From Puniceicoccaceae bacterium 5H (GTDB lineage: Bacteria; Verrucomicrobiota; Verrucomicrobiia; Opitutales; Oceanipulchritudinaceae): a DNA stretch of 64,000 nucleotides. The stretch covers positions 129,798 to 193,797 of the forward strand of contig WOUP01000007.1 of NCBI GenBank assembly GCA_009772895.1. The letters run 5' to 3'. Below, one piece after another: positions 9,865 through 58,907 of the stretch; position 1 is the first letter of the stretch, and each line of letters begins with the position of its first letter. A program made the position numbers and the translations under genes. A model generated the notes under the pieces. The model was not told where the DNA came from, did not search any database, and was given only the letters and a program-made list of their open reading frames with translations.

Positions 9865-9886
9865 AATCCACCGTATAGACGCTTAA

Positions 9887-9916: not shown

Positions 9917-9941
9917 TTGGGTGGAAGGTCCGGCTTGGCGG

Positions 9942-16727: not shown

Positions 16728-16759
16728 CCGCAGCGCGTCGACAAAATGGCAGCACCCGC

Positions 16760-16792
16760 AGGCGTCGGCACAGGCTGACGCCTCGTTTGTGT
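16760..16792 (+). terminator. Possible intrinsic terminator after the response regulator
   Basis: Stem aggcgtc/gacgcct (16760-16766 / 16777-16783) followed by cgtttgtgt (interrupted U tract). Confidence 0.35.
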
Positions 16793-16917
16793 ACCGACGC
16801 AGGCGCGGGGCGGGGCGGAGGAGGAGGTATTGTTCACAGAAAAGGGCAGGCACAAAAAGGACAGGGCGTATATTCTTTCGGCTTTACCTTGTTAACGTTA
16901 TTTAAGATAACGGTATC

Positions 16918-18351
16918 ATGGACAAGAAAATAGATGCATTGAACAATCAAACGCTGAACTATGGCCCTATTGAGTCTTTCGATCAGGACTTGCTAGATCT
17001 ACACACTTTTGCAGACAGGCTGGAATCATTTATCCGAGTGGAGCACCTGTTTGTGGGGGATGGTCTCGTGTTAGGACTCAATGCACCTTTTGGCCACGGG
17101 AAGACGACATTCCTCAATATGTGGGAGGATCGTTTGAAGAAGAGGCGCAAGGCCGATCCAAATGAGGGCGACGTCTCCACTCCAACTCCTATGGTCATTC
17201 GGGTGAACGCTTGGCAGTCGGATTATCTGAGTGATCCCCTGTGTGCAATCGTAAGTAAGATTATAGAGGAGTTGAAAGAAGAGGGGCACAATAATGGTCA
17301 AGTGAACGAGATCTCTAAGGCTTTTAAAAAAATGGGCTGGTTTGGTTTAGCCATTGGTGGCCAGATTGTACAAAAGGTGACCGGCATCAACGCGATTGAA
17401 GCAGGGGAAGTTGCAGAGAAGCGTGTGCAGAGTGGAAATGATGAAAATCAGGAATCGAATCCGTTCGATGTTTTTCAGGCTAGACAAAGGGCAATGGGAG
17501 AACTGAAGGCCGCGTTAAGTGATGCCTTTCAAGGCAAGGAGCCAACTGTCTATATCTTAGTTGATGAATTGGATCGGTGCCGCCCTGATTATGCCATCAC
17601 GTTTCTGGAGACCATAAAGCACATTTTCGACATCCGGGGTTTGGTTTTTGTGTTGGCTGTAGATCGCGATCATCTTGAAGTGTCCGCGAAGGCGGCTTTT
17701 GGGCGTGGACTGAATTTCGATGAATACTACCGAAAGTTTCTGCAGCGCGAAGTTAACTTACCGAAAATGTCTGATAAAGGTAATAAGCGGATGATCGATC
17801 AGTTCATTGATAAATATGTGAAAGTAATAGATCGAAGGGTTTGCTGTGCCGACATTAAAGAAGCGATGAATGATGGCTTGTATGGCTTTCTTCATCATGC
17901 CTCATTAACTCCTCGGCAACTCACGGAAATGTTCCGTATTTTGGGTCATATTCTGGCGCGAAACAGGGAGGAGTCGATGTGGATGTTGCACAATATAGCG
18001 CAAGTGACTGTCATAATGTCAGCTTTAAGGTTTGTTAATTCAACATGGTACGAAGGTTTGGCTAATGGTGGGCTCAGTGAGGATGATGTAATAGGAGCCG
18101 TTAAAAAATACTTTGATGAAGATATTCAGAATGAATGGCTAACTTTCTTCTTTGGAGGCTACTGCTTGGTCGTCGACCAGAAAGCTGATTATGCAGGTTT
18201 CATGGGTAAAGCGGGTGAGGAAATTGGTGATCCTCCTGCCGGTGGATGGTCTTCGCATTTGCGTTCGAGTGGCCAGTGGGGGCGGTCTTATATCAATTGG
18301 TTTAGCAGGGTGCGTCATTGCATTGAGGAACTTGAGCAAATGAGTGCCTAA
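16918..18351 (+). CDS. KAP-family P-loop NTPase
   Basis: Walker A LNAPFGHGKTTFL. KAP-type Walker B region VYILVDELDRCRPDYAITFLETIKHIF. Helical C-terminal half. A/T-ending codon usage unlike all neighbours. Confidence 0.85.
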   Translation: MDKKIDALNNQTLNYGPIESFDQDLLDLHTFADRLESFIRVEHLFVGDGLVLGLNAPFGHGKTTFLNMWEDRLKKRRKADPNEGDVSTPTPMVIRVNAWQSDYLSDPLCAIVSKIIEELKEEGHNNGQVNEISKAFKKMGWFGLAIGGQIVQKVTGINAIEAGEVAEKRVQSGNDENQESNPFDVFQARQRAMGELKAALSDAFQGKEPTVYILVDELDRCRPDYAITFLETIKHIFDIRGLVFVLAVDRDHLEVSAKAAFGRGLNFDEYYRKFLQREVNLPKMSDKGNKRMIDQFIDKYVKVIDRRVCCADIKEAMNDGLYGFLHHASLTPRQLTEMFRILGHILARNREESMWMLHNIAQVTVIMSALRFVNSTWYEGLANGGLSEDDVIGAVKKYFDEDIQNEWLTFFFGGYCLVVDQKADYAGFMGKAGEEIGDPPAGGWSSHLRSSGQWGRSYINWFSRVRHCIEELEQMSA

Positions 18352-31054: not shown

Positions 31055-34000
31055 ATGCGAACGAGTCTCTCTGCTCATTCGGGAAGGACGGCCTTCGGGC
31101 TCGCCCAAGCGTGGGCGGAGTTCCTGTTCAAGCTCATCCTGTGCGTCGCCCTCTATCTCGGGGCCGGCGGCATGGGGCTGCAGGTCGCCCTTTGGGAGCA
31201 ATTCGCCCCGCTCATCTGGCCGCCGGCCGGCATCGCGCTGCTCATCGTGTTGCGTGGAGGCTACCGCTATCTGCTTGCGGTGGCGATCGGGGCTTTTGCG
31301 GTGCGCTTTCTGGAGGGAGCCGGCAATGTGCCCTCAGCCTTCATCTCGTCGATCGGCTACACGCTGGCCGCGGGGGTTGCAGCCTTTACGCTCAAGGAGA
31401 TTGCGCGCCTGGAGCCCGCGCTGGAGCGCCTCAGTGACGTCATCTGGTTCGTTCTGGTAGGCGTGGTGGCGGCGCCGCTGCTCAGTTCGCTCTTTTCCAT
31501 CTACAGCCTCACGTTTCTCCATCTGGAGCTGCACCGGGGCTTTTTCGAACTATGGAAGGTGCGGTGGCTCAGCGACGCGCTCGGCGTGCTGGTCGTGACG
31601 CCCGTGCTGCTGGTGTGGCACGCCCGGACGCGCGTCAACTGGCGTAACGCGCAGACGGTGGAGGTGCTCGTCTGGCTGGCGATCCTGATTTTCCTCGGCG
31701 CCCTGATTTTCCGTAACTGGGCCCCCAGCGACACCCTGCGCTACCCGCTGGACCTCACGATGTTCCCGCTGATGGCGTGGGCGGCCGTGCGCTTTGGCCA
31801 ACGCGGTTCGACCGTCGGCATCTTTATCGTGGCGATGATGGCCGTGTGGGAGTTGCGCGACGTGATCGGCCCCGAGCCGACGAAGACCATCACGCAGCCC
31901 CCGGGCTATTTGTGGCTGTTTGTGGGCGCCCTGAGCATCACCGCGCTGTTGCTCGCCGCGACGCTGACCGAGGTGAAGAACCGCGAAGATACTTCGCGCA
32001 CCAACGAGGAGCGTTTGCGCGCCTTCATCGCCGCCATGCCCGACCTCGCCTATGTGGTGGACGAGCAAGGCATCTACCAGGAGGTGTTCGTGCCGCGCAC
32101 CGGGATGTATCGCGAACGAGCGGCACGCCTCAAGGGCCTGTGCATGTACGACATCTATCCCAAGGAGATGTGCGACAATTTCATGCGGGTGGTACACCGT
32201 GCGCTGGAGACGCATGAGCTGCAGATCTTTCGCTACAGCATGGAGGTCCATGGCCGGCTCGTGTGGTTTGAGGGACGGATCGCGGCGATGTCGACCGTGG
32301 AGGGCCAACTGCCGTCCGCGATCTGGGTCGCCTACGACATTACCCAGACGCAGCACATCACCAGTCAGCTACAGGCGCGCGACCAGTTGCTGCAGGCCGT
32401 GACGGAGGCCGAGGAAAACCTGCTGAAGGTCAAGAATTTCGAAACCGGGATCACCACGACGCTGCGCCTGATCGGGCAGGGCCTGGAGCTGGATCGCGTG
32501 GGCCTCTACGAAAACGGCCGCGACAGCGAGACGCAGGACCGGGTGGTCTCCCTGCGCTTCGAGTGGGCCAGCGACCCGCGTTTTGCGACGCCCGACCCCG
32601 ACCCGGCCCGCTACCTTTACTACGACAGCGACTTGCCGGTGTGGTATCCCAGCCTGCAGAGCGGTTCGCCCCAAGTCTTCGGGCACGAACATTGCCCCCA
32701 GGGGCTGCGCGAATGGCTGGAGCGCACGCACACCCGCAGCGGCCTGGCTGTGCCGATCTTCGTCGCGGGCGACATGTGGGGCTTCCTCAACCTCGGCAGT
32801 TGCCGCATGGACCGCGATTGGGATACGCAGACGCGCCGTGCGCTGGGCAGCCTTGCGGGCAGTATCGGAGGCTACCTCGAGACCAAGCGCATCGAAGACG
32901 CGCTCAAGACCGCCAAGGAGGCCGCCGACAGCGCCAACCAGGCCAAGAGCATGTTCCTCGCGATGATGAGCCACGAGATTCGCACGCCCATGAACGCGAT
33001 CCTCGGCTTTACCGATTTGCTCACCCAGACGGATTTGACGGAAGAGCAAAAGGACTACCTCAACATCGTGACCCGCAGCGGTAAGGACCTGCTCGAACTG
33101 ATCAATAACATCCTCGACTTTTCAAAGCTGGAAAGCACCCAGGTGGAGCTGGAGCGCACGCCCTTTCGCCTCGAGACCTGCGTCATCGAAGTGCTCGAGA
33201 TCCTGCTGGCCAAGGCGAAGGAAAAGGGCATTACGCTCGATTACGACATCGAGGACCCCACCGATGGCCAGTACATCGGCGACCCGTTGCGCTTCCGCCA
33301 GATCGTGCTCAACCTCGTCAGTAACGGCGTAAAGTTCACCTCGAAAGGCAGCGTACACGTGCGCGCCAAGGCCATCCCGGTCGACGATAGGCGAACGGAG
33401 ATCTACCTGCAGGTGCGCGACACCGGTATCGGCATCCCCGACGAAAAGCTGAGCGACCTGTTCGAGGCTTTTACCCAGGTCGACTCATCCACCACCCGCG
33501 AATACGGCGGCACCGGGCTCGGCCTTACCATCTGCCGTCGCCTGGCTGAGCGCATGGGCGGGCGCATCTGGGTCAACAGCGAGGTGGGCAAGGGCAGCAC
33601 CTTCCACGTGACCGTAATGCTGGAAAACGGGAGCACGCGCCCGGCTTCCTCCCTGCCGTCGAGCGATAGCCAGGAGTTGGACCGCCGCTTCGCCAGCCGG
33701 CACCCCTTACGCATCTTGCTGGCGGAGGACGACGCGGTGAATACCCGCCTCGCGCACGAGGTGCTGGTCAAGCTGGGTTACAGTCCCGATCACGTCCAGG
33801 ATGGCCGGGCGTTGCTGAAGGCCGTGAGCCAGCAGGAATACGACGCCGTGCTGCTGGATGTGCAGATGGCCTACTACGACGGGATCGACGTGACGCGTCG
33901 CATCCGTCGCGGCGAAGCGGGGGAGCGGCAGCGCAACCTGCACATTATCGCCCTCACCGCACTGGCGCTGAAGGAGGATCGCGACCGCTGCCTGGAGGCC

Positions 34001-34105
34001 GGCGTGGATGACTACCTGACCAAGCCGTTGGTGATCGGGCGTTTGAAAGATTCCCTTAAAGCCGCCTATACCGCGATTTCTGAAAATAGAAAAGGCCGAA
34101 GCTGA
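31055..34105 (+). CDS. Hybrid sensor histidine kinase (MASE1-like membrane domain - PAS - GAF - HisKA - HATPase_c - REC)
   Basis: About 300 aa of N-terminal TM region. H-box [17 protein letters not shown]-box [10 protein letters not shown]-boxes DTGIGI / [13 protein letters not shown]-terminal REC ILLAEDD...VLLDVQM...KP. Confidence 0.85.
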
Positions 34106-36055: not shown

Positions 36056-36193
36056 CTTGCGTGTAAATTAGAAAAGTGGTTATATGTTCACCTGTTCGCT
36101 GCATCATCCCTGAACGCATCCTATGTCCCTATTCACCACCTTCACCCCTTGCCGCTTCCCGTGCGGAGGCCTCGACCGGAGGAATGCCCGCCC

Positions 36194-36646
36194 ATGAACC
36201 CACCATCGCAGATTCATCAATGGACGCCTGACGTCCACGACTACCAGGCCGCGGACTACGCCCACCTGCTGCCGCCCGGGCAGGAATGGTTCAGCGTGCG
36301 CGAGGCGGCGGAGCTGCTGCACGTCAGCCCGCAGTATATCCGGGACTGTTTCGAGGCGGGCAAGCTCTTCGGGCATCGCCACAACGGCCGCTCGCGGCGT
36401 GGGCAGGAGCAGCGCCGCCGGGTGCACATCCGTCGCGACAGCCTGCTGCTTTACTTTGCCGAATCCGCCAACTACGACTTCAGCCTCTACCGCCTGCGGT
36501 TGCTGGAGCTGCTGGACGGCCTGCCGGAGCCTTGGCTGGCGGAAGTGCCGGAGTTGGTGCGAGTTCTGCAGCAGCGCCAGGGTGAGAAAAACGCGCTCCG
36601 GCGTGGACACGGGCCTTCCGTAGGCTATGCTGGGCGCAGGGGATGA
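36194..36646 (+). CDS. Excisionase/MerR-like helix-turn-helix DNA-binding protein, first gene of the MoxR operon
   Basis: [34 protein letters not shown]...[14 protein letters not shown] matches the HTH_17 pattern. Its stop overlaps the moxR ATG (ATGA at 36643-36646). Start ATG 36194 is preferred over TTG 36149. Confidence 0.6.
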
Positions 36647-37608
36647 AAGCTAACGTTATACCGGCACCGCGCGTCAAAGCGGCCCTGGACCGTGTCCGGG
36701 CCAACATCACGCAAGTCATCAAGGGCAAGGAAGAGGTGGTCGAGCGCGTGCTCGTGGGCCTGCTGGCCGGTGGCCACTTGCTGATGGAAGACCTGCCGGG
36801 GCTGGGCAAGACGACGCTGGCTTATTCGCTGGCGCGCTCCATCGACTGCGACTTTGCCCGCGTGCAGTTTACGAGCGATCTGTTGCCGAGCGACGTGATC
36901 GGCGTCTCCGTCTACGACGAGCGCCAGCGCGAATTCGTTTTCAAGCGCGGTCCGCTCTTCACCAACATCCTGCTGGCCGACGAGATCAACCGCACCACGC
37001 CCAAGACCCAGTCCGCCCTGCTGGAGGCGATGGACCGCGGCAAGGTGTCCGTCGACGGCCAGACGCACGAGGTGGGCGAGCCGTTCATGGTTTTCGCCAC
37101 GCAAAACCCGGTGGACTACGAGGGCACGTTTCCGCTGCCGGAGAGCCAGATGGACCGCTTTCTCCTGCGCCTCGAAATGGGCTATCCCGACTTTCAGGAC
37201 GAGATGACGATCCTGCAGCGCGGCTTTCAGCACTACGATGCCATCCCGACCGAACCGGTGCTGACCCGCGAGGAGGTGCTGGAGCTGCAGGGTTACGTGG
37301 GGCAGGTCTACTGCGAGCCCACGGTGCTGGAGTATATGTTGCGCATCGTCACCGCCACGCGCACGGAGGCCGAATTTCGCGCCGGGGTGTCCACGCGCGG
37401 CAGCATCGCGCTCAAGACGGCTGCGCAAGCCTGCGCGCTGCTGCGGGGCCGGGGCTTCATCACGCCCCAGGATGTGGCCGACATGGTGCCGCCGGTGCTC
37501 GCCCACCGCCTGACTTTGCGTCGACCGGCTACGGACAGCCTGGAGGCGCACCGCCTGGTCGAGGCCAGCCTCTACCAGATCCTCGACCGCCTGCCGCAAC
37601 CGGTCTAG
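36643..37608 (+). CDS. MoxR-family AAA+ ATPase
   Basis: Walker [13 protein letters not shown], Walker [36 protein letters not shown], 321 aa. Confidence 0.92.
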
Positions 37609-37620
37609 GCTTTCCCATCC

Positions 37621-38145
37621 ATGCGCATCGCCACGAGCATTCCCGAACTTGCCCTGCGCGCCGCGGGGCCTGAAGACGTCGACACCATCCTGGAGCTGGT
37701 CCGGGGCTTGGCCGAATACGAACACCTCGAGCACGAGGTGGTCGCTACGCCCGAAGCCTTGCGCGAGACACTTTTCGGCGAGCGCCGCTACGCCGAGGTC
37801 GTCCTGGCTGAGTGGGAGGGTCAGCCGGCCGGCTTCAGCCTGTTTTTCCACAATTACTCCACCTTCCTGGCCAAGCCGGGTATCTACATCGAAGACATCT
37901 TTGTGCTGCCGGCCTACCGGGGGCGCGGGTGCGGCAGTGCGTTGCTGCGCTTCGTGGCGGCCATCGCGGTCGAGCGCGACTGCGGGCGGCTGGAGTGGGC
38001 CGTATTGAACTGGAACGACCCGGCGATCGCCTTTTACCGGGCCAACGGCGCGCTGCCGCTGGAGGAGTGGACGACGCAGCGCGTGACGGGGCAGGCCCTG
38101 GTCGATTTGGCGGCGCGCAGCCTCGCAAAGCCCCATGGCAGCTGA
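37621..38145 (+). CDS. GNAT acetyltransferase, spermidine/spermine (diamine) N-acetyltransferase-like
   Basis: LVRGLAEYEHLEHEV, FFHNYSTFLAKPGIYIEDIFVLPAYRGRGCGSALL, LEWAVLNWNDPAIAFY - SSAT-type signature as I recall it. Confidence 0.8.
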   Translation: MRIATSIPELALRAAGPEDVDTILELVRGLAEYEHLEHEVVATPEALRETLFGERRYAEVVLAEWEGQPAGFSLFFHNYSTFLAKPGIYIEDIFVLPAYRGRGCGSALLRFVAAIAVERDCGRLEWAVLNWNDPAIAFYRANGALPLEEWTTQRVTGQALVDLAARSLAKPHGS

Positions 38146-39289
38146 GAACGCGCAAGGTAACTGGTTGACGCGCAAGGGGCGGGAGTGGTCCGACCCGGGC
38201 TACTTCGTCGGTCAATCGCCTCTGCGCAACGGGGCGCGCGTCATCTGGCACATGGTGCGCCCGCCGCGCGGCCACAAGACGCGCATGACGCGCATCGGCC
38301 TGCTGCTGGTCTTTATTTCCATCGGCCTCGGCTCGGCCGCCTTCAATACGAGCCAGAACATGCTCTACCTCGCGCTGGCGCTGTTGCTCTCGTGTCTGCT
38401 GCTCAGCGGCGTGCTTTCGTGGCTCAACTTCAAGGGCGCACGCTGGCGGCTGGACATCGAGGGGCACTTCCGCGTGGGGCAGTCCGCACCGCTGGAGGTG
38501 GAGGTCTACAACCGCAACCGCTACCTGCCCCTCTACAGCCTCTGGTTTCTGCTGGTGGCCCGGCAGGAAGACGAGGGCACGACCCTGCCGCTGTTGCGCC
38601 CGCTGGGCCCGCAACAGACGCGACGCCTCACCTGGCACTTTACGCCGCAGCGGCGCGGGGTGGAGACGGTTGCCCTGCACAGCATCATTTCCAAATTCCC
38701 CTTCGGCTTCCTGCGCAAGAGCATCGAATGGACGCAGGAACAGGAGATCGAAGTGTGGCCCGAACGCTGCACTTATTCGTGGCACCCGGTCGCCAGCTCG
38801 CGCTATCAGCGGGTGGGGGAGCACCAGACGCGGCTCGGCACGGGTGCGGAACTGCTCAACCTGCGCCACTACCGCCCCGGTGACGCGCTGCGGCAAGTCT
38901 CGTGGAAGGCCACCGCGCGGCAGGGTCGCCTGATGGTGCGCGAGACGGCGGAGGAGAGCCAGGCCCGTTATTGGCTGGAAGTCTCGAGCAACAACCACGT
39001 CTGGAAGCCCGGCGAGCAGTTTGAGCGCTATTGCAGCCTGGTCGCCAGCCTGGCGGAAGACCTCTACCAGCAGGGCCGGCTCGCCGGTGTGATTTTTAAC
39101 GACGAACCGCCGCAGCCGGTGCAACACCTGCCGGAGCTCCAGCAGGTGCTCAGCAAGCTGGCGCGGCTCCAACCCGTGGCCCCCTTCCCGGGGCGCGATC
39201 TGCCCCAACAACCCCGCGTCAGCTTCGGCCCCGGCGCGGGCCCTCACGTGCGTGCCTATGTCAACGGCCAACCCGCAGGCGAAGCTTGA
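38135..39289 (+). CDS. DUF58 domain protein (MoxR-associated)
   Basis: N-terminal TM pair plus the motif LRHYRPGDALRQVSWKATARQGRLMVRE characteristic of DUF58. Start uncertain (38135, 38252 or 38285). Confidence 0.8.
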   Translation: MAAENAQGNWLTRKGREWSDPGYFVGQSPLRNGARVIWHMVRPPRGHKTRMTRIGLLLVFISIGLGSAAFNTSQNMLYLALALLLSCLLLSGVLSWLNFKGARWRLDIEGHFRVGQSAPLEVEVYNRNRYLPLYSLWFLLVARQEDEGTTLPLLRPLGPQQTRRLTWHFTPQRRGVETVALHSIISKFPFGFLRKSIEWTQEQEIEVWPERCTYSWHPVASSRYQRVGEHQTRLGTGAELLNLRHYRPGDALRQVSWKATARQGRLMVRETAEESQARYWLEVSSNNHVWKPGEQFERYCSLVASLAEDLYQQGRLAGVIFNDEPPQPVQHLPELQQVLSKLARLQPVAPFPGRDLPQQPRVSFGPGAGPHVRAYVNGQPAGEA

Positions 39290-41483
39290 GTATCGCTTCC
39301 TGCAGCAGCTGAAGTGGCTGCTCGGGGGGCTGATGGCGCTGATCTCACTGGTCGGGGTCTTCAGCCTCGGCATCGGCGCGGGGCCGGTAGTGGCGCTGGG
39401 CATGGTGTGCATCAGCATCGGGCTCGTCTGGCCGCGTCTGGTGCGGCGCATCCCCAGCTGGGTGTGGAAGGCCGCGACGCCGATCCTCATCATCCTGATC
39501 GTGACGGATTTCGTGCTCGCGGCAGGGGATATCCTTTCGCCGCTGGTGCGCATGATCATGCTGCTCACGATCCTGCGCGCCCTGCAGGAGCGCCGTCGCC
39601 GGGAAGACCTGCAGCTGCTCTTGCTCTCGCTCTTCCTCGTGATCGTGACCGGCGTATTGACGATGGAGCTGACCTTCGCCCTGCAGCTGCTGCTCTATAC
39701 GCCGGTTGCGCTGTTTCAGCTCTTCACGATCAACCTGTCGGAGAACTACGTGGACGAGCAGGAGGGGGACCCCGAGCACTGGCAGCTGTTTCGCTGGCGG
39801 CCTCTGGGCGGCTTTTTGCGGCAGATCCTGCACCCGCGCATGTTGGGGCTCAGCACGCTGCTGTTCTTCGGGCTGGCGGGCATGGCCTCGCTGATCTTCA
39901 TCTCGCTGCCGCGTTTCGACTTTGGCCAGCAGCTGCCCTTCGCGCGGCTCAGCACCAGCTCCGGCGCCCCCGGTCTCAGCGAGGAGGTGACCTACGGCGA
40001 CGTGGTGGACCTGCTCGACGACGATACGATGGCCTTGCGCGTCGATGTGGGCAGCGACATCCCGCCGTCTTCGCCCTATTGGCGCATGCTGGTGCTGGAC
40101 GAGTTTACCGGGGAGGGTTTCCGCGCCTCGCGCTCCCTGCAAAGCACCTTCCGCTACGACGAGCTGACCCGCTTCAGCGCCGAGGGCAGCTACCGCAACC
40201 GCGACCGGGGGGAGGGACAGACCTGGACGTTTTACTTCGAGGGCGGCATCAGCCGCTACTTGCCCATCCCGGGCTCCTTTCACGAGCTGCGGCTGCAAAA
40301 CGAGATGACGCTGGCCTACAGCTATCCGGGGCGTACGCTGCGCACGCAGGAGACGCAAAACAACGTGCTCTTTTATCGTCTGGAAGGCCTGGACCCTACG
40401 GCGCGCGTGATCCCGGCCATGCGGCGGGAGTCCGAGTGGCTGCAGCAATTGTTGAAAAACGGCGGTGAACTGCAGACGGAAGATCCCGGCTATCCGGCCA
40501 CGACACTGGAGTTGCCAGCCGATGCGGGGGCGCGGGCCGCCTTGCAGCGTTGGGTGGCGGAGATCGAGCAGGGACAGGCACTGGGGCCCAATACCTTTAT
40601 CAGCCGGGCCACCGCCTTTTTGCAGCGTGATCGCGGTTACTCGATGCAGGTGCAGATCCCGGACGCGGATTGGACGGAGAACCGCATCTGCCGTTGGGTG
40701 CAGGCGGGCATGGCGGGCCATTGCGAGCTCTACGCTGGGGCGTTGATTCTGTTGGCCCGCGAGGCAGGGATCCCGGCACGCATGGTCACGGGCTTTGCCG
40801 GCGGGGACTGGAACGCCTACGAGCAATATATGATGGTGCGCAATCGCCACGCACACGCCTGGGTGGAGTTCTTCGATCCGGAGGCCGGTTGGGTGCGCGC
40901 CGATCCCACGCCGGCACGCGTTCTGCCGGGTGACAACCAGCAGCAGAGTGAGCAGAACGGGCGCGAGAGCGTGATCGACGACACCCTCAATGCCTATCTG
41001 GACAGCCTGCGCGTGCTCTGGTACCGCCGCGTCGTCAGCTTTGACCGCAGCCAGCAGCAGGAGATGCTGAAGGAGTTGCGGGAGTCGATGGGGCAGTGGG
41101 GGCCGCACCTGCGTGAGCGCCTCAACGCCTGGATGCAGTCTGTTCGCGGCTGGTGGAGCGAGGGCCTGAGCTGGGGCAAGCTGGGCCGTCTGGCTGCCAA
41201 GCTCGCGATCACGCTGGTGATCTGGCTCGGCTTGCGTCTGTTATGGCAGGCGTGGCGCCGGCGGCAGAACAACAAGCCTGGCCGCTTGCACCCAGACCGG
41301 CGCCGCGCGGGCGTGTGGTTGCGCCGACTCGAGGCGTTCAACGCCGCAGACCCGGACGAGCGAGGCCGCGTGAAGGCGCAATTGCTGCTGATCCGCTACG
41401 GCGATATGGAGCAGTGGCCGGAGCGCAAGACCGTCTTTCGCCAAGCTCGCCGTTTGAAGCCGGCCAAAAGATCGACCGTTTGA
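39252..41483 (+). CDS. Transglutaminase-like membrane protein (DUF3488 N-terminal TM region + transglutaminase core)
   Basis: Cys-His-Asp core GHCELYAGALILLAREAGIPARMV...HAWVEFF...GWVRADPTP, with several N-terminal and one C-terminal TM helices. Start is GTG 39252 or ATG 39258, overlapping the DUF58 end. Confidence 0.85.
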   Translation: MPMSTANPQAKLEYRFLQQLKWLLGGLMALISLVGVFSLGIGAGPVVALGMVCISIGLVWPRLVRRIPSWVWKAATPILIILIVTDFVLAAGDILSPLVRMIMLLTILRALQERRRREDLQLLLLSLFLVIVTGVLTMELTFALQLLLYTPVALFQLFTINLSENYVDEQEGDPEHWQLFRWRPLGGFLRQILHPRMLGLSTLLFFGLAGMASLIFISLPRFDFGQQLPFARLSTSSGAPGLSEEVTYGDVVDLLDDDTMALRVDVGSDIPPSSPYWRMLVLDEFTGEGFRASRSLQSTFRYDELTRFSAEGSYRNRDRGEGQTWTFYFEGGISRYLPIPGSFHELRLQNEMTLAYSYPGRTLRTQETQNNVLFYRLEGLDPTARVIPAMRRESEWLQQLLKNGGELQTEDPGYPATTLELPADAGARAALQRWVAEIEQGQALGPNTFISRATAFLQRDRGYSMQVQIPDADWTENRICRWVQAGMAGHCELYAGALILLAREAGIPARMVTGFAGGDWNAYEQYMMVRNRHAHAWVEFFDPEAGWVRADPTPARVLPGDNQQQSEQNGRESVIDDTLNAYLDSLRVLWYRRVVSFDRSQQQEMLKELRESMGQWGPHLRERLNAWMQSVRGWWSEGLSWGKLGRLAAKLAITLVIWLGLRLLWQAWRRRQNNKPGRLHPDRRRAGVWLRRLEAFNAADPDERGRVKAQLLLIRYGDMEQWPERKTVFRQARRLKPAKRSTV

Positions 41484-41620
41484 ACGACGACTTTAGCCTT
41501 GAGCACCAAAATGTCGAAAATTTGACGGCGTAAATTGTAAAAAAACCGTCCGAGAATCGCGTCTGCAAAAGTTTACCCATTTTTACTCATAACGCTCGGT
41601 TCGGTACAGGGTTTGCCCCT

Positions 41621-43831
41621 ATGCAGGCGATGAGTAGGATACTATACGGTCTAAGAGCCTCCCGCGTGCGTGGATGGGGGCTCATGGCGACGGGATTGTT
41701 GCCCTTGTTGCTTCCGCACCGCCTGGCGGCGCAGGATACCGGCGTCGCGGACGCCATTCAACTGGTGCAGCATCACCTGGACATGGCGTGGGTCCTGGTG
41801 GCGGCGGCACTGGTCTTTCTGATGCAGGCGGGCTTTCTCTGCCTCGAAAGCGGCATGTCGCGCGCGAAGAATTCGATCAACGTGGCGGTGAAGAACCTGG
41901 GGGACTTCATCCTCGGCGCGCTGCTGTTCTGGCTGTTCGGCTTTGGCATCATGTTTGGCCACAATGCGGGCTTGGGCAACCTGGTGGGCGGCAGCAACTG
42001 GATGCCGCACTTCGAGTCCAATGCCGATCTGGCGGTCTTCTTTCTCTTTCAAACGATGTTTGCCGGCACGAGTGCCACGATCGTGAGCGGGGCCATCGCC
42101 GAGCGCACGCGCTTCTGGGCCTACATGGGCATTGCCGGCTTTACCATCGGCATCATCTACCCCATCTTTGGCCACTGGGCCTGGGGCAGCCTGTTTTACG
42201 GTGACGGCGCCACAGGCTGGCTGGAGGCGCGCGGCTTCCACGACTTTGCCGGCTCGACGGTGGTGCACAGCGTCGGCGGCTGGGTGGCGCTGGCGGCCGC
42301 GCTGTTGGTCGGACCGCGACGCGACCGTTTCGACGTCAAAGGGCGCCCGCAAACGATCCAGCCGCACAGCCCGATCATGGTCTACCTGGGCGCGTTGCTG
42401 CTGTTCTTCGGCTGGTTCGGCTTCAATGCCGGCAGCACGCTGGAAGCCACCGAATCCATCGCGAGCATCGCGGTCAATACGATGCTAGCGGGCTGCGCGG
42501 GCTCGCTCTTCGCGGGCATCACCAGCGCGGTGATGGACCGTCAGCACAAGGTGCAGGCCATCAGCCTCGCCAATGGCGTGATCGCGGGTCTGGTCGGCAT
42601 CACGGCGGGCTGCGATGCGGTCTCGGCCGGCGGGGCGGTGCTGATCGGCGTCGTGGCCGGAGTGCTGCTCGAGCTGGGCGGCAAACTGCTCGAGCGTCTG
42701 AAGATCGACGACGTGGTGGGCGCGGTCCCGGCGCACGGCATGTGCGGCGTCTGGGGCACGCTGGCCGTCGGCCTGCTGGCAGTCAACGTGCCCGAGGGCA
42801 TGACCCGCATGGGCTTGATCGGCGTGCAGGCGCTGGGGGCGCTGGTGGCCTTTGCCTGGGCCTTCGGTTCCGCCTGGATCATCATCGGGCTGGTCAACCG
42901 CATCCTGCCGATGCGCGTCGACCCCGAGGACGAAGCCCTGGGCCTCAACCTGGCCGAGCACGGCAGCAGTTCTTCGTTGCTCGACCTGGCAGCGTCGATG
43001 GAATCCATCTCCAGCACGGGCAACTACGAGCGCCGGGTGCAAGTGGAGGTGGGCACCGAGGTTGGCGACCTCGCCCGCAGCTTCAATCGCCTGCTCTCGG
43101 CAGTCGATACGGCCCTGGAACGCAACAACGAGATCGTCAACCGCTCGCAGGCGCACCTGGAGGAGAATCTACAGCACCTCGAGGGCGATACGCGCACGAC
43201 CAGCGAACGCCTGCGGGCGGCGCACGCACGGGCGGAAGGCATGAACGGCCAGCTGGAAGTGATGAGCGCCAATCTGGGGCAAAACAAGGAGAAGCTGGAG
43301 CGTTCGACCGCCGACATCCGCTCCAACGCCAAGACCCTTTCCGGTCAGGCCGACGAGATCCTCGACACCATCCGCACCATCGCGGACTCGACCAACCTGC
43401 TGGCGCTCAACGCCTCCATCGAGGCCGCGCGGGCGGGCGAAGCCGGGGCCGGATTTGCCGTGGTGGCCGAAGAGGTGCGCCGCCTCGCCCGCAAGTCGCA
43501 GCAGGCCGTGGGTGAGATCGAGGAGCGTATGGTCGCGATGGGCCGGCTCAACCAGGAGCTGCTCGACGGCTTGCTGGGGCAGGCCACCGAGAGCCGCGAA
43601 TCCGCCGGCTCCTGCACGTCTCTGCACGAGGCCACGAGCGAGCTGATGCAGGTCCTGACCGAGGTGATGGAGGGCGCGCGCCACACGCAGGAAAATGTGG
43701 AGCGCACCTACGCCCGCCTGAACGAGATTTACAGCGACGCCGCCGAGCAGGCCGTTCCGCACCGCGATCGGCCCTACCTCAAGCGCGTGCCGATGGACGA
43801 CGCGGTCCTTGAGACGGCCGGGCTTTCCTGA
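41621..43831 (+). CDS. Ammonium transporter (Amt) fused to HAMP-like linker and methyl-accepting chemotaxis (MCP) signalling domain
   Basis: Amt motifs GHWAWGS...[59 protein letters not shown]. Then [16 protein letters not shown] (HAMP-like). Then the MCP hairpin core [48 protein letters not shown]. Confidence 0.85.
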
Positions 43832-47053: not shown

Positions 47054-47518
47054 ATGAATAACAAGGATTTCAACGAAGTCGTTCACCTGATTGTCCGGGA
47101 TGATCGGCGCTATGAACCGGGCGCCTACCACTTTTTGCGCCAGGCGCTCGACTATACGCTGAACAAGGTGCGCGAGAAGGAAGGCGCGAGTTCGACCCGC
47201 CACATCAGCGGTCAGGAACTGGCGGAAGGCATCCGCGACTACGCGCTGGACCAATACGGGCCCATGGCCAAGACGCTCCTGAACGAATGGGGCATCACGA
47301 AGACAGGCGACTTTGGCGAGATGGTCTTCAACCTGGTGGACTACAAGGTCTTCGGCAAGACCGAGCAGGACCACAAGGAGGACTTTCAGAACCTTTACAG
47401 CTTCGACGAGGCGTTTTTGCAGCCCTTCCGCCCCGAGCACCCGCCGCGCTTTTATTACCGTCCCGGTGAAAGGCGCTTGAACTCGGTCAGCTCTTCGTCG
47501 CAGACTCCGCGCGCATAA
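47054..47518 (+). CDS. Minf_1886-family protein (Verrucomicrobia/Planctomycetes-restricted, TIGR04138-like)
   Basis: YHFLRQALDYTLNKV...RHISGQELAEGIRDYALDQYGPMAKTLLNEWGITKTGDFGEMVFNLV matches my recollection of that family. Its stop overlaps the ATG of the M16 peptidase (TAATG). Confidence 0.7.
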   Translation: MNNKDFNEVVHLIVRDDRRYEPGAYHFLRQALDYTLNKVREKEGASSTRHISGQELAEGIRDYALDQYGPMAKTLLNEWGITKTGDFGEMVFNLVDYKVFGKTEQDHKEDFQNLYSFDEAFLQPFRPEHPPRFYYRPGERRLNSVSSSSQTPRA

Positions 47519-50097
47519 TGCCTGATACCAAATCGACGCGGGAAAGCGGGCGGACGCAGGTCCTCCGCGATTTGCTGGCTTGGCCGGTCAAACGGTGGGT
47601 GCTGCCCAACGGGCTCACCGTGCTCCATCTGGAGGACCATTCCGCCGATCTGGTGGCCATTCAGGCCTGGGTGCATACCGGCAGCATCCATGAGGGCGAG
47701 TGGATGGGGGCAGGCCTCTCGCACTTCCTCGAACACATGCTGTTCAAGGGCACTGAAAAGCGCGACTGCCTCTCCATCGCCAAGGAGATTCAGGCCGCGG
47801 GCGGCGACATCAACGCCTATACGACTTTTGACCGTACCGTCTACCACCTCGAGCTGCCGAGCGAGGCCTTTGCGCTGGGCATCGAGCTGCTGCGCGACCA
47901 GGTGCTGCACAGTACGTTGCCGCCCGAGGAGGTGGCCAAGGAGCGTGGCGTGATCCTGCGCGAGATCGACATGGGCCTCGACGATCCGGATCGGCGCGTC
48001 GCACGCTCGCTCTTCCGTACCGCCTTCCGCCACCATCCCTACCGGCATCCGGTGATTGGTTATCGCGAGGTGTTCGAGCAGGTACAGCGCGACGACCTCT
48101 GGAAGTATTACAAGGAGCGCTACGTGCCCAACAACATGACGCTGATCGTGTCGGGCGCGGTGAGCGAGGCGCTGCTGCAGCACGAACTGCGGCAGACGTG
48201 GGCCCTGGAGCAGCGCAAGAAGCTGCCGCCGATCCCCGTGCCGCAAGAGCCGATCCAGCTCGCCCCCCGCCAGGAAGAGCTGCAGGGCGACGTGAATATC
48301 TGCCGCGGTGGTATCTCCTTTCGCGTGCCCTCCATGCGCAGCACCGATGCGCCCGCGCTGGACGTGTTGGCCGCGTTGCTGGGGCAGGGGCGCAGTTCCC
48401 GCCTCTGGCGCACCCTGCGCGACGAGCAGAAGCTGGTGCACTACATCGACGCCACGGTCTGGAATCCGGGCGAAGCAGGGTTGTTCTGGATTTCCTACTA
48501 TTGCGAGCCGAGCCGTCACAACGAGGTGCAAGACGCCATCCTCGCCGTACTCGGCCAGATCGCCTACGAACCCTTTACGGTCGACGACGTGGCCAAGGCC
48601 CGTCGCGGCGCGCTCGTGAACGAGATCAACGCGCGCAAGACCATGACGGGACAGGCCGGTCGCCTGGGCGGGGCCGAAGTCGTGGTCGGCGACCTCGACT
48701 ACCCGAAGACCTATTTTGCCCGCCTCGATCAGGTACGCCCGGAAGACCTCCAGCGTGTGGCCGAGAAATACTTGCAGGAGCAGGCCCGCAGCAGCGTCTC
48801 GCTGGTGCCGGAGCGCGAATCCACTCAGGCCACCGCCGAGCACCAGAAGGTCCAGGCGCCGGAGTTCAAGGAGAAGAAGCTCTCCAACGGCGCCCGCATC
48901 CTGTATCAGGTTGACCGCAAGCTGCCCAAGGTGCACCTGCGCTACAGCGCCCTCGGCGGTCCGCACTTCGAGAACGACGACGTGCGCGGCATCACCGCCT
49001 TGCTGGCCAACTTGCTGACCAAGGACACGGCGCACCGCACGGCGGCCGAGGTCGCGAGCTCCATCGAGCAGGTCGGCGGCGCCTTCGCCCCGTTCTCGGG
49101 CAACAATACTTTCGGTTTTTCGCTCGAGGTGATGCCCGAAGACGAAGAGCTGGCGCTCTCGTTGCTTGAGGATTCGCTGCTGCGTCCCGACTTCAAGGCC
49201 CACACCTTCGGGCTGGAGCGCGACGCGCAGATCGCGGAGATCCAGGAGGAGAACGACGAGGTGGTCGACTATGGCCGCCGGCTGTTGCGCCGCTATTTCT
49301 TTGGCAACCACCCCTTCAGCATCGACCCGCTGGGCGAGGTGCGCCACCTGCAGCAGATGATGGTCGATCAGGTCCGCGACCTCTTCAAGACGCTCGTCAT
49401 CGGCGGAAACACGGTCGTGAGCGTCTCGGGCGACTTCGACGAAGAAGAGTTGCTGCCGCGTCTGGAGCACATTCTCGAGCAGATCCCGCAGGGGAAAATG
49501 CCCGATCGAGCGCCGCTGGAGCTGGGCCGCCAGCAGGGCCAATGGGAGCACGAGACCAAGCAGCGCGAGCAGGCCGTCGTCTACCGTGCCTTTGCCGACG
49601 TGGGCATCCAGAGCGGTGACATGTTGCTGAGCGATTTGCTGGAAGAGATCTGCAGCGACATGTCGAGCCAGCTGTTCTTCCGCGTGCGCGAGCAGCAGAG
49701 CCTCGCCTACTTTGTGTCTGCCAGCCGCGTGCTGGGGCTGCGCCAAGCCATGTTCTATTTCTTTGCCGGCACGCATCCCAATACGGCGGCCCGGGTGCAG
49801 CGCGAGCTGGATTTCGAGGCCCAGCGCCTGCGCGAAGGCGGCATTACGGACGACGAATTCCAACGCGCCCGCCGGCGCCTGAAGGTCCGTCGCCGCGCCG
49901 GCTTGCAACGCATCGGGGCTCGTGCCGCCCAGGCCGGTCTCAACGCGCTCTATGGCAAGCCGATCAACGACTGGCTGGAGCAGGATGCGAAGCTCGATGC
50001 CGTGACGCTCGACCAGCTCAAGGCCCACGCGGCCAAGGTCTTCGCCGAAGACAGCGGGGTGGGCCTTATCGTCGCGCCCGAGCGCAAGGGCGAGTAA
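47518..50097 (+). CDS. M16-family (pitrilysin/insulinase-like) zinc peptidase, fused double unit
   Basis: HxxEH motif LSHFLEHMLFKGT plus downstream E (REIDMG). 859 aa, i.e. four M16 half-domains. No signal peptide seen. Confidence 0.85.
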   Translation: MPDTKSTRESGRTQVLRDLLAWPVKRWVLPNGLTVLHLEDHSADLVAIQAWVHTGSIHEGEWMGAGLSHFLEHMLFKGTEKRDCLSIAKEIQAAGGDINAYTTFDRTVYHLELPSEAFALGIELLRDQVLHSTLPPEEVAKERGVILREIDMGLDDPDRRVARSLFRTAFRHHPYRHPVIGYREVFEQVQRDDLWKYYKERYVPNNMTLIVSGAVSEALLQHELRQTWALEQRKKLPPIPVPQEPIQLAPRQEELQGDVNICRGGISFRVPSMRSTDAPALDVLAALLGQGRSSRLWRTLRDEQKLVHYIDATVWNPGEAGLFWISYYCEPSRHNEVQDAILAVLGQIAYEPFTVDDVAKARRGALVNEINARKTMTGQAGRLGGAEVVVGDLDYPKTYFARLDQVRPEDLQRVAEKYLQEQARSSVSLVPERESTQATAEHQKVQAPEFKEKKLSNGARILYQVDRKLPKVHLRYSALGGPHFENDDVRGITALLANLLTKDTAHRTAAEVASSIEQVGGAFAPFSGNNTFGFSLEVMPEDEELALSLLEDSLLRPDFKAHTFGLERDAQIAEIQEENDEVVDYGRRLLRRYFFGNHPFSIDPLGEVRHLQQMMVDQVRDLFKTLVIGGNTVVSVSGDFDEEELLPRLEHILEQIPQGKMPDRAPLELGRQQGQWEHETKQREQAVVYRAFADVGIQSGDMLLSDLLEEICSDMSSQLFFRVREQQSLAYFVSASRVLGLRQAMFYFFAGTHPNTAARVQRELDFEAQRLREGGITDDEFQRARRRLKVRRRAGLQRIGARAAQAGLNALYGKPINDWLEQDAKLDAVTLDQLKAHAAKVFAEDSGVGLIVAPERKGE

Positions 50098-54920: not shown

Positions 54921-56033
<1,113 letters not shown>

Positions 56034-56262
56034 GTTTCGCGTGATAAATGCAGTAGGCATACCAGTCGGTCTAGTTGGGCCAGGGTGCAAGCCCTTTTGT
56101 AGCATTTCTGCCGGGGCTCATAGCGGCGTCACGTATCAGGTGCCTCTGTATCAAGAGGTAAACGTGTGCAGGTGCTCGCTGCGAAAAGGCGGTAACATGG
56201 GGCGTAAAACGGGCTTTGCCCTTGCCCTGCGTGAAGAGCAAGGCCACCTTTCCCGATACCCC

Positions 56263-58242
56263 ATGAAGGCGGCAAGTATTGCGCAGCGCATCGCGGATTT
56301 TCTGAAAAACTATCCGCCGTTCGAATTCCTCCCCGAAGACGCCCTGGCCGAGCTGGCGTCACAGGGCAGGGTAAAGTTTCACGAAGCCGGAGAGATCGTG
56401 TTCCTGCACGGGCAGCCGCGCGATCGCTACATCTACGTGATCAAGCAGGGCCGCGTGCGCATCGTCGACGAGCAGCACGAAAGCCAGTTGATCGACCTGC
56501 GCGGTGAGGGCGACATGTTGGGGCTGATGGGCCTCAGCGGGGAAACCCACTTTATCCATACGGGCTACAGCGAGGCGGAGACGATCCTCTACGGCTTGCC
56601 GCGCGAAGAATTTGCGCGCCTCTGTGAGCGGTCGGCCCAGGCCCGCCGGTATCTGGCGATCTACTTCACGCTCAACCCCGTGACGCAGACGGGCAATACG
56701 AGCATCATGGAGGCCACGGGCGGCGAAACCCGCATCACCAGCTCCGGTCCGATGGCGACCATTACCCTGCGCAAGGGCGGCCTGTTCGAGGTCGAGCGTT
56801 CGCAGGACCTCGCCCGCGCCACGCTGGTGACGGCTTCCCCCGAGGCGAAGGTGCGGGAGGTCGCGCAGCTGCTGCGCCGCAGCCATACCGAGTGCGTGGT
56901 GCTGGTCGACGACGCCGGCCTGGCGGTGGGGCGGATCAGCGATGCGGACTTGCGCAACCGGCTGGCGGTGGGCAAATGCGATGCCGACGCTCCGGCCCGT
57001 ACCGTGATGCGCAGCCACCTCGTGGCGGCCAGCCCGCGGGATAACACCGGGCGTCTGCTGATCAAGCTGACCCGTTCCGGCGATCCCTACATTGTGGTGA
57101 CGCAAGACGGCACGCTGAAAACGCCCGTGATCGGCCTCATTACCGAGCGCAATCTTTTCCTGCAATACGGGCGGTTCCCGACCGTGCTGGGCCAGGCGAT
57201 CGATACTTCGCCCGACGTGGTGACGCTCCGGGCGATGCGCGACCGCCTGGAGGCCCTCATCATGGAGTTCATGGACGACCGCATGGCGTTCCCGTGGCTG
57301 ATGGAGATGACGGGCGTGCTCAATCGCCGCCTCAATCGCCGCCTGGTGCAGCTCTGTATCGAGCAGCTGCGCTCCGAGGGCCGGGAAAGGCCGCAGGAGC
57401 GTTTTTCGTGGCTGATGATGGGCAGCGGCGGGCGTGACGAGCTGCTGATCCGCTCGGCCGTCTACCATGCGTTGATCTACGAAGACCCCTCGCCCTACCA
57501 CGCGGACGAGGTGCGCAGCTACTTCCGCGAGTTGGCCAAGCGCGTGAGCGACGGCCTGCGCCAGTGCGGTTTCCGCGAAAGCGCCCAAGGGGTGCTGGCC
57601 GATCGCCCGGAGTGGTGCCAGCCGCTCAGCGCAATGAAGGCCCGCTTTGCCGGCATGATCGCACACCCGGTGGAGCAAAACGTCTACAACGCGCGCGACG
57701 CCTTCGATTTTCGCCCGCTGGTGCAAGGATGTCCGCTCGCCGGCAGCCTGCGCATGAGCATGTTGGAGAGCCTGCGCAACAACCCGGGCTTCATCCACCA
57801 CATGGCCAGCGACAGCCTGTTGCACCAGCCGCCGCGCACGATCTTCCAGGGCTATGCGGTGGACGAGCGCGGCACGATCCGCGAAGAGCTGGAGATCAAG
57901 GCGCACGCCCTGCTGCCGCTGGTGGATACCGCGCGCGTGCTGGCCCTCGAGGCCGGCCACGTGGAGAGCAACGCCACCTACCGTCGCTTCCAGATGGCCG
58001 CCGAGATCCTCTTCGAGGGCGATCCGGGAGCCCAGCGCGTGATGAACGAAGCCTCCGAAGCCTTCAAGGTCGCCCACTACGCCCGCGTCACGCGCGGCCT
58101 GGCTGCCGGCACCGACGGCGCGGTCATCCGCCCGGGTGCGCTCGACCGGGAGACGCGCGAGCTGCTGAAGACGGCCTTTCGCACCATTCTCGAAACCTTG
58201 GAACTGACCGCACGCCGCTACGGCCTCAAGCTCAAGTCGTGA
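56263..58242 (+). CDS. cNMP-binding + tandem CBS + DUF294 putative nucleotidyltransferase + DUF294_C protein (NTase Asp residues apparently substituted)
   Basis: cNMP-like FHEAGEIVFLHGQPRDRYIYVIKQGRVRI; CBS-like stretches (VTASPEAKVREVAQLL..., HLVAASPRDN...); NTase-like WLMMGSGGRDELLIRSAVYHALIYED. Start is 56263 (MKAAS) or 56197. Confidence 0.75.
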   Translation: MKAASIAQRIADFLKNYPPFEFLPEDALAELASQGRVKFHEAGEIVFLHGQPRDRYIYVIKQGRVRIVDEQHESQLIDLRGEGDMLGLMGLSGETHFIHTGYSEAETILYGLPREEFARLCERSAQARRYLAIYFTLNPVTQTGNTSIMEATGGETRITSSGPMATITLRKGGLFEVERSQDLARATLVTASPEAKVREVAQLLRRSHTECVVLVDDAGLAVGRISDADLRNRLAVGKCDADAPARTVMRSHLVAASPRDNTGRLLIKLTRSGDPYIVVTQDGTLKTPVIGLITERNLFLQYGRFPTVLGQAIDTSPDVVTLRAMRDRLEALIMEFMDDRMAFPWLMEMTGVLNRRLNRRLVQLCIEQLRSEGRERPQERFSWLMMGSGGRDELLIRSAVYHALIYEDPSPYHADEVRSYFRELAKRVSDGLRQCGFRESAQGVLADRPEWCQPLSAMKARFAGMIAHPVEQNVYNARDAFDFRPLVQGCPLAGSLRMSMLESLRNNPGFIHHMASDSLLHQPPRTIFQGYAVDERGTIREELEIKAHALLPLVDTARVLALEAGHVESNATYRRFQMAAEILFEGDPGAQRVMNEASEAFKVAHYARVTRGLAAGTDGAVIRPGALDRETRELLKTAFRTILETLELTARRYGLKLKS

Positions 58243-58907
58243 TGGATTTCGCCCCGCTCATTCAAGCCTACCGCGCGCGTTTCGACTGGACCTGGGATCG
58301 CAACCTGGGCTGGGAAAACGTGCGCTTTGTGGTGCTCGATTCCGAATCGACTGGCCTCAATGCGGAGCGCGACAGCATCATCTCTATCGGCGCTGTGGGC
58401 GTCTTCGACTTCGAGATCCGGCTGGACGATGCCTTCGAGATCATCATGCCGGTGGCTTACAACAGCGCCTCGGTCATGATCCATGGCATCACGCGCGAGG
58501 AAGCGGCCGAAGAAGGCACGCCGGAGCCGGAGGCGCTGGCCCAGTTCCTCGAATACCTCGGCGACGGCGTGATCGTGGGCCACCACATCGAGCACGACAT
58601 CAAGATGCTCAACGTGGCCTGCCGTCGCCACTTCGATCAGGAGCTGCAAAACCTGTGGGTCGATACGATGAACCTGACCCTCGTGCTGGCCGAGCACGGC
58701 GCCTTCCCTGAGGAGGAGGGCTTCACCGACTTTTCGCTCGACGGCCTGTGCCGCCGCTTCGGCCTGAAGGCCCACGACCGCCACACCGCGCCGGGCGACG
58801 CCTTCCTCACGGCCCAGATTTTCCTGCGCCTGCTCAAGACGGCCAAGCGCCAACGCCTCCTGCGCCTCGGTCAGCTCATGGCCGCCCCGACGCCGCCGGA
58901 GCAGTAG
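58242..58907 (+). CDS. DEDDh 3'-5' exonuclease (DnaQ/epsilon-like domain)
   Basis: ExoI VVLDSESTGL, ExoII VGHHIEHDIKML, ExoIII HTAPGDAFLTAQIF. Its ATG overlaps the stop of the upstream gene (TGATG). Confidence 0.8.
   Translation: MDFAPLIQAYRARFDWTWDRNLGWENVRFVVLDSESTGLNAERDSIISIGAVGVFDFEIRLDDAFEIIMPVAYNSASVMIHGITREEAAEEGTPEPEALAQFLEYLGDGVIVGHHIEHDIKMLNVACRRHFDQELQNLWVDTMNLTLVLAEHGAFPEEEGFTDFSLDGLCRRFGLKAHDRHTAPGDAFLTAQIFLRLLKTAKRQRLLRLGQLMAAPTPPEQ

Follow-up and report, generated by a model that had tools for sequence, protein, structure and literature searches.

A candidate ammonium chemoreceptor joining an Amt channel domain to a HAMP linker and a chemoreceptor hairpin in Puniceicoccaceae bacterium 5H and its relatives in several phyla

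To follow up an earlier note, made by a model from the DNA letters alone, we analyzed a 64,000-nucleotide stretch of the genome of Puniceicoccaceae bacterium 5H (GCA_009772895.1, contig WOUP01000007.1, positions 129,798 to 193,797; hereafter the window, with positions counted from its first letter). The note had drawn attention to one open reading frame (ORF) encoding an ammonium channel (Amt) domain that is continued by a HAMP linker and the signalling hairpin of a methyl-accepting chemotaxis protein (MCP) (Table 1), and had proposed the product as a possible ammonium chemoreceptor. Most bacteria favour ammonium over other nitrogen sources, and no identified receptor for swimming towards higher ammonium concentrations is known to us. 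The characterised sensor-type Amts are high-affinity, highly selective ammonium receptors which, as the earlier note had mentioned, are so far wired to a histidine kinase, as in Ks-Amt5, or to a GGDEF-type cyclase producing cyclic di-GMP (c-di-GMP), as in Sd-Amt1 (PMC5764959, PMC11152129). An Amt-MCP protein is a concrete, testable candidate for direct ammonium chemotaxis, would provide an input that detects its ligand inside the membrane, and raises the structural question of how a sensor that is trimeric can drive an output that is dimeric and fit into a hexagonal array.

Table 1. Features of the Amt-HAMP-MCP locus, in positions of the window and residues of the maximal 736-residue ORF product (AF2, AlphaFold2; pLDDT, predicted local distance difference test).
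Feature	Residues	Position	Strand	Remarks
AT-rich intergenic region, 137 bp		41484..41620	+	Upstream of the Amt-MCP ORF; holds a weak sigma-54-like element
Amt-HAMP-MCP ORF, whole	1-736	41621..43831	+	Uninterrupted, maximal 736 aa; stop codon 43829-43831
Probable true start, Met22, and short hydrophobic N-terminus	from 22	41684..41734	+	ATG at 41684, giving 715 aa
Amt (ammonium channel) domain	56-450	41786..42970	+	Pfam, NCBIfam, residue mapping, AF2, Foldseek
HAMP linker	451-493	42971..43099	+	AS1 ~452-466, connector, AS2 from ~480 running into the hairpin
MCP signalling hairpin	494-709	43100..43747	+	N-arm to ~604, turn ~605, C-arm 606-709
Hairpin-tip core	579-634	43355..43522	+	Kinase-control/protein-interaction region of chemoreceptors
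Pro-containing C-terminal tail	710-736	43748..43828	+	AF2 pLDDT <50-55; probably disordered

A conserved gene fusion in at least six phyla

The 736-residue frame described in the earlier note was found intact, and it is the only frame at its position with the codon-position GC pattern of a genuine gene (0.66/0.46/0.87, typical of the genuine genes in the window, whose overall GC content is ~64%). Its product is 100% identical to a database protein (P0001) annotated as 'ammonium transporter Amt family' from Puniceicoccaceae bacterium 5H, a Verrucomicrobiota metagenome-assembled genome, where it is encoded on a contig of 775 kb; the precomputed Pfam list for this entry includes PF27870.1. As a refinement, translation probably begins at Met22, because the NCBI call for the identical P0001 (715 aa) begins there and because the called GTG start of a 79%-identical ortholog in Verrucomicrobiota bacterium JB022 aligns there too. 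The hydrophobic segment that follows Met22 appears signal-peptide-like, and the AF2 model is disordered until ~17 residues past this methionine.

The 137-bp AT-rich gap upstream suggests that the gene probably has its own promoter. Within the gap a sigma-54-like GG-N10-GC element (CGGTACAGGGTTTGCC, 41602-41617) is located 5 nt upstream of the first ATG of the ORF; it agrees with the consensus at 8 of 12 positions, and since 36 sites in the window match it better (at 9 or more of 12) the element is not significant alone. We keep it as a lead only, because the JB022 ortholog has a sigma-54-like element placed identically (locus L001, ~9875-9895) in an intergenic region that has otherwise diverged. 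A genuine element here would imply NtrC-type nitrogen control and a transcription start downstream of the ATG at 41621, favouring Met22.

Both the linker and the signalling domain that the earlier note had discerned were recovered by Pfam above the family cutoffs, with borders that divide the protein into Ammonium_transp (PF00909, residues 56-450; E 4.6e-117, 391.5 bits against a cutoff of 23.2, profile positions 1-397 of 399), HAMP (PF00672, residues 451-493; 31.0 bits against 25), which begins directly after the last Amt helix, and MCPsignal (PF00015, residues 557-697; 90.9 bits against 34.6, E 1e-25). The fusion of these domains is real and under selection. Of the 120 best homologs (identities of 39-100%), 119 have both PF00909 and PF00015, the two halves of the ORF have the same GC content at third codon positions (0.87) and composition does not shift near 43000, and the spacing between channel and hairpin tip is kept in heptads across the family (see below), which together argue that the fusion is not an artefact of assembly. 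The chimeric join near 43000 that the earlier note had wished to see excluded, or a frameshift hiding separate amt and mcp genes, is thereby effectively refuted and has next to no probability: in addition to the best homologs, the fusion occurs in 23 species-representative genomes, these being independent assemblies that include complete genomes, and the two parts meet within a conserved HAMP that Sd-Amt1 has too. What can be said for separate genes comes from an uncultured Rhodobacteraceae (locus L022), where the Amt-HAMP part (9911-11635) and the MCP tip (11639-12370) are adjacent ORFs split by a stop codon; this split may reflect an error in sequencing, a pseudogene or a natural two-ORF form.

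The 120 best homologs originate from at least six phyla, namely Verrucomicrobiota (Opitutales), Planctomycetota (including Blastopirellula, Rhodopirellula, Stieleria and Bremerella), Desulfobacterota (including Desulfoluna and Desulfopila), Gammaproteobacteria, Spirochaetota (Spirochaetales) and Tectomicrobia, with Thiorhodovibrio also among the genera represented. A scan of one genome per GTDB species identified 23 further full-length Amt-MCP genes, with carriers that include Leptospira, Oceanispirochaeta, Rhabdochromatium, Thiohalospira, Roseospirillum, Terasakiella (Alphaproteobacteria being among them) and Neiella, as well as the Bacillota Halalkalibacter, Gracilibacillus, Salibacterium and Orenia. 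The Amt-HAMP-MCP proteins are a large multi-phylum family that is annotated merely as 'ammonium transporter', and hundreds of database entries with that name are probably receptors, which matters where nitrogen uptake is inferred from metagenomes. The spread of the family across Planctomycetota, Verrucomicrobiota, Spirochaetota, Desulfobacterota, Proteobacteria and Bacillota also means that culturable, genetically tractable hosts exist.

To place the MCP version among its relatives, we tallied the outputs of 50 fused relatives from GTDB species representatives (loci L004-L083), a sample biased towards the query: 23 carry an MCP, 12-13 a histidine kinase (HisKA/HATPase), ten a GGDEF domain (nine of these with EAL and many with PAS) and three a SpoIIE phosphatase. 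Sensor-type Amt domains therefore bear interchangeable outputs past the same conserved linker, and the MCP version is, despite the query-biased sampling, a major branch. Pelagibacteraceae loci and SpoIIE-type fusions related to the SAR11 protein Amt-GI5 (PMC11796062) are among the relatives found; Amt-GI5 shares the Amt-HAMP-output design, is a proposed ammonium sensor that is likewise uncharacterised experimentally, and has a PP2C/SpoIIE-type phosphatase as output rather than an MCP. Some 25 further relatives among the GTDB species representatives have the same sensor-type N1/N2 residues (described below) and carry no fused domain.

The earlier note had been unaware of any characterised Amt-MCP chimera, and we likewise found no paper describing one in the full-text literature, where a passing mention in the 2009 Tremblay & Hallenbeck review or in the supplements of PMC11152129 is possible. 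In public databases the fusion is common, under the name 'ammonium transporter'. The novelty lies in a new, uncharacterised output for the ammonium-receptor class of Amts, and not in rarity or in anything unique to Puniceicoccaceae bacterium 5H.

An Amt domain of the receptor type

The Amt half is complete, as the earlier note had held. In addition to the Pfam match it exceeds the NCBIfam TIGR00836 'amt' cutoff (395.8 bits against 343.3), and AF2 returns the Amt monomer fold with pLDDT >90 in this domain (whole-model mean 84); its close match to solved Amt structures predicts the 11-transmembrane (TM) fold. Residues were mapped through HMMER alignments to the solved structures of Sd-Amt1, Ks-Amt5, Af-Amt1 and AmtB. 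All of the motifs that had been picked out by eye are present and each falls on the correct structural residue: the vestibule is represented by W188 (in HWAWG) and S272, the Phe gate by F147 and F268 (in GWFGFNAGS) and the twin-His pair by H216 and H372, with D208 also in place.

Similarly to the characterised sensors, the domain has the N1/N2 residues Q69, E76, N92, D95, F96, T153 and S156, together with the exit-narrowing N318. The ammonium-receptor (AmR) class is defined by an N1/N2 site for two ammonium ions beneath the twin-His pair, for which the signature Q-X6-E-X15-N-X2-D-[F/T]-X54-60-T-X2-[S/T] has been proposed (Pflueger et al., PMC11152129). The window protein matches this signature exactly, T153 being 56 residues after F96. 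E76 sits where the transporter Af-Amt1 has Tyr (Y27), and N318 aligns with Sd-Amt1 N269, the residue by which the cytoplasmic exit is narrowed there, and with Af-Amt1 S251, AmtB also having Ser. The earlier note had named loss of the pore or binding residues in a proper alignment as a result that would count against the reading; in an alignment of 121 family sequences little or no variation is seen at any of the N1/N2, exit and pore residues, and the N318 position is Asn in 120 of the 121.

Comparison with solved structures points in the same direction. In sequence searches the best match was Sd-Amt1 (E 1.5e-102), followed by Ks-Amt5 (1.5e-93), Af-Amt1 (5e-50) and AmtB (~1e-39), and the alignment to Sd-Amt1 runs on through the HAMP region, to residue 505. 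A Foldseek search with the AF2 model ranked Sd-Amt1 highest (TM score 0.95, root-mean-square deviation 1.6 A, 44% identity), with Ks-Amt5 at 42% identity and Af-Amt1 and AmtB at only 31-32% (AmtB 31%, TM score ~0.9). Judged by these residues and matches, the Amt module is of the AmR type of Sd-Amt1 and Ks-Amt5, and not an AmtB-type transporter domain.

Sd-Amt1 of Shewanella denitrificans (PDB 8qj3, 8qj4, 8qpf; Pflueger et al. 2024, PMC11152129) is the closest known system in both sequence and fold, sharing the N1/N2 site, the Glu in place of Tyr, the exit Asn and a HAMP placed directly after the Amt C-terminus; the HAMP region of the window protein aligns with Sd-Amt1 residues 404-450, which its authors call HAMP. 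The two differ in output, as Sd-Amt1 ends in a GGDEF diguanylate cyclase that makes c-di-GMP, whereas the window protein ends in an MCP hairpin that has no enzymatic activity of its own and must work by way of a kinase complex distinct from it. Ks-Amt5 of 'Candidatus Kuenenia stuttgartiensis' (PDB 6eu6; Pflueger et al. 2018, PMC5764959) shares the non-transporting Amt sensor and the N1/N2 ligands, but its histidine kinase is fused directly without a HAMP and its exit position is Thr, in contrast to the HAMP and Asn of the window protein. AmtB of Escherichia coli, which with GlnK forms an ammonium uptake pair (PDB 2ns1, 2nuu), shares the Amt fold and pore residues but has Tyr and Ser where the window protein has Glu and Asn, and it has neither the N1/N2 signature nor a fused output.

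The earlier note had called the protein a 'transceptor', and of that proposal the receptor part is supported while the transport part has become less likely, since an AmR-type Amt with an N1/N2 site favours a pure receptor over a transporting one. In a true transceptor the Amt would still conduct ammonium for assimilation and the MCP tail would report the flux, with translocation itself as the signal. The pore and selectivity residues, all of which are intact, would allow for this, but for Sd-Amt1 and Ks-Amt5, its nearest relatives, binding of ammonium without transport has been shown (PMC5764959, PMC11152129), and N318 and E76 match the receptor state rather than the transporter Ser and Tyr. 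Moreover, amtB is co-transcribed with glnK, whereas Pfam searches covering nearly every credible ORF of the window identified no PII/glnK gene, either next to the ORF, as the earlier note had observed, or elsewhere; similarly, no glnK adjoins the homologs in JB022, Blastopirellula marina and Thiorhodovibrio (loci L001-L003). We regard a transporting transceptor as unlikely.

The signalling hairpin and its likely pathway

The C-terminal half consists of the HAMP and a hairpin. In the AF2 model (ORF numbering) a helix at 452-466 and a loop are followed by a long helix at 480-604, a turn, a return helix at 606-709 and the disordered Pro-containing tail, each arm of the hairpin comprising ~15 heptads. 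PDB matches to this half include the signalling domains of Tm1143, Tsr and Tar (E ~1e-14). At the tip, residues 579-634 align without gaps to E. coli Tar 361-416 with 63% identity, and just past the turn E607 and F612 correspond to Tsr E391 and F396. The family is conserved chiefly at the tip, where T591, L594, N597, A598, E601, A602, A605, G606, F612, V614 and V615 are invariant or nearly so, and the hairpin arms diverge quickly. With the HAMP-MCP part alone as query, a library of 1.84 billion proteins returned two matches at E <=1e-30 and 217,272 generic MCP matches; the arms diverge too fast for the size of the family to be estimated from this part.

Like Tar and Tsr of E. coli and Tm1143 of Thermotoga maritima, the window protein has a HAMP followed by an antiparallel coiled-coil hairpin. 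Tar and Tsr differ from it in their input, which is dimeric and consists of two TM helices with a periplasmic four-helix-bundle ligand domain, whereas the input of the window protein is a channel fold of 11 TM helices that is predicted to hold its ligand within the membrane and, from what is known of the Amt family, expected to trimerise. They also differ in the length of the hairpin, which has 36 heptads in Tar and Tsr and ~30 in the window protein, and in having methylation sites and the NWETF tail, neither of which is recognisable here.

In 61 of 88 family members, across ten length classes ranging from 133 to 224 residues, the invariant Amt-exit His (H447) and the tip Glu (E607) lie a multiple of seven residues apart. 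This indicates that only insertions and deletions of whole heptads were tolerated, as is characteristic of a coiled coil that is mechanically continuous from channel to tip. After the tip, the homologs P0001-P0120 fall into two length groups, of ~121-139 aa and of ~55-105 aa; in P0015, P0018, P0020 and P0022 the N-side is 160 aa and the C-side just 71-79 aa, the N-side not being shortened to match. Either many of these sequences are truncated or they represent a subfamily with an asymmetric hairpin.

We propose, with a probability of about 0.7, that the protein is a membrane receptor for external ammonium that feeds a CheA/CheW-type pathway. Ammonium (NH4+) would enter along the full Amt selectivity path of periplasmic Trp/Ser vestibule, Phe gate and twin-His pair, below which E76, in place of the transporter Tyr, would open the side pocket that holds the two-ammonium N1/N2 site, while N318 would narrow the cytoplasmic exit. 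By homology to Sd-Amt1 and Ks-Amt5, NH4+ would occupy N1/N2 rather than being conducted, and the Amt C-terminus would shift. The architecture provides a path along which this shift could be relayed, via the HAMP and then the continuous coiled-coil hairpin of ~15+15 heptads, to the chemoreceptor tip, which by analogy to known chemoreceptors would control a CheA/CheW-type kinase complex; the ammonium level would then bias motility or another Che-controlled output of the lineage. Coupling to CheA/CheW is what we infer from this analogy.

A quite different role for the hairpin, in which it would serve as a coiled-coil scaffold, bring about polar localisation or regulate the channel instead of being a signalling output, appears very improbable. 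It would accommodate the merely generic resemblance to MCPs beyond the tip, with just the two close matches in the large library search, the missing methylation sites, and the family members that have 55-80 aa past the tip as against ~128. The conserved positions, however, cluster precisely at those tip residues through which chemoreceptors control their kinase, and the sister proteins bear unambiguous enzymatic outputs (histidine kinase, GGDEF-EAL, SpoIIE) at the same post-HAMP position.

Several observations weigh against an ammonium receptor that feeds a CheA/CheW-type pathway. Amt modules are trimers and MCP hairpins are dimers, which makes the assembly of arrays a puzzle. For Sd-Amt1, its authors proposed dynamic pairing of two of the three HAMPs (PMC11152129). 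Plant AMT1 proteins that act as transporters have the N1/N2 signature as well (PMC11152129), so the signature alone is no proof of lost transport. AF2 confidence in the antiparallel hairpin helices is moderate (pLDDT 63-75), and the distance from Amt exit to tip in the window protein itself is 160, one short of the dominant register of 161. The C-terminal tail has no NWETF-type CheR-tethering pentapeptide, and the methylation consensus [ASTG][ASTG]xx[EQ][EQ]xx[ASTG][ASTG], whether strict or relaxed, was not found in residues 441-736. Many bona fide chemoreceptors deviate from this consensus, and we consider the 'methyl-accepting' property and adaptation by methylation unsupported rather than excluded.

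The genomic context likewise offers no partner. No cheA, cheW, cheY, cheR, cheB or flagellar gene is present in the window, and none was found within 10 kb of the Amt-MCP genes examined in other genomes, among them the homologs in JB022, Blastopirellula marina and Thiorhodovibrio. Phmmer searches with E. coli CheA, CheW, CheR, CheB, CheZ and MotAB against all ORFs of 83 loci revealed no CheA, CheW or CheR within 10 kb of any Amt-MCP gene in the genomes examined, in every one of which the Amt-MCP gene is an orphan receptor gene. Such orphan genes are usual for MCPs and have no bearing on function. Cultured Puniceicoccaceae, moreover, are mostly described as non-motile.

These last points lend weight to a receptor whose Che-like output is non-flagellar, acting on type IV pilus motility or on an 'alternative cellular function' such as biofilm formation or development, and the short hairpin and the missing methylation consensus agree with this. 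Yet the hairpin tip is canonical, and carriers such as Leptospira, Terasakiella, Roseospirillum, Rhabdochromatium and Gracilibacillus are classic swimmers. In addition, some Verrucomicrobia, including Puniceicoccaceae, express flagellar and chemotaxis genes (bioRxiv 10.64898/2026.01.08.698421). For Puniceicoccaceae bacterium 5H a non-flagellar output of this kind is a live alternative, if a somewhat doubtful one.

If ammonium sensing does feed a CheA/CheW-type pathway, a further step can be put forward tentatively, namely that the Amt-MCP family could be the first dedicated bacterial ammonium chemoreceptor, sensing within a channel pore instead of by a periplasmic ligand-binding domain and coupling a three-fold sensor to a two-fold hairpin. 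Such receptors would have to build their arrays in a way that known receptors do not; Amt trimers could, for example, occupy the three-fold nodes of the hexagonal lattice, or two of the three hairpins could pair dynamically.

Neighbouring genes and other features of the window

Upstream of the Amt-MCP gene and on the same strand lies a string of genes (36149-41483, +) for a helix-turn-helix (HTH) protein, a MoxR AAA ATPase, a GNAT protein, a DUF58 protein and a TgpA-type transglutaminase, and further upstream a large MASE1-PAS-GAF hybrid histidine kinase (31055-34105, +). The string and the kinase are syntenic with Verrucomicrobiota bacterium JB022 (L001, 113-9771). Downstream, on the opposite strand, are genes for an outer-membrane beta-barrel protein, AhpC and AhpD. 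No glutamine synthetase (GS) or glutamate synthase (GOGAT) gene was identified in the window. In Thiorhodovibrio (L003, 5433-7568, -) the Amt-MCP gene divergently adjoins a gene for a dCache_1-HAMP-MCP chemoreceptor, the sole such case seen.

A low-GC island at 16001-18351 (GC 0.52 against ~0.64 elsewhere), which may have been acquired horizontally, contains a stand-alone receiver protein (16143-16727) and a KAP-family P-loop NTPase (16918-18351). The receiver was considered as a CheY and rejected, being 36% identical, far under the CheY cutoff, and equally similar to PhoB/PleD receivers. A second low-GC stretch (2001-4126, GC 0.53) includes a PMT_2-type glycosyltransferase gene (2306-4126). 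Elsewhere in the window, a protein with cyclic nucleotide monophosphate (cNMP)-binding, CBS and DUF294 nucleotidyltransferase domains (55927-58242, +) adjoins an RNase T-like exonuclease (57564-58907, an overlapping ORF call), and two separate M16 peptidase genes are found at 47518-50097 and 59331-62219.

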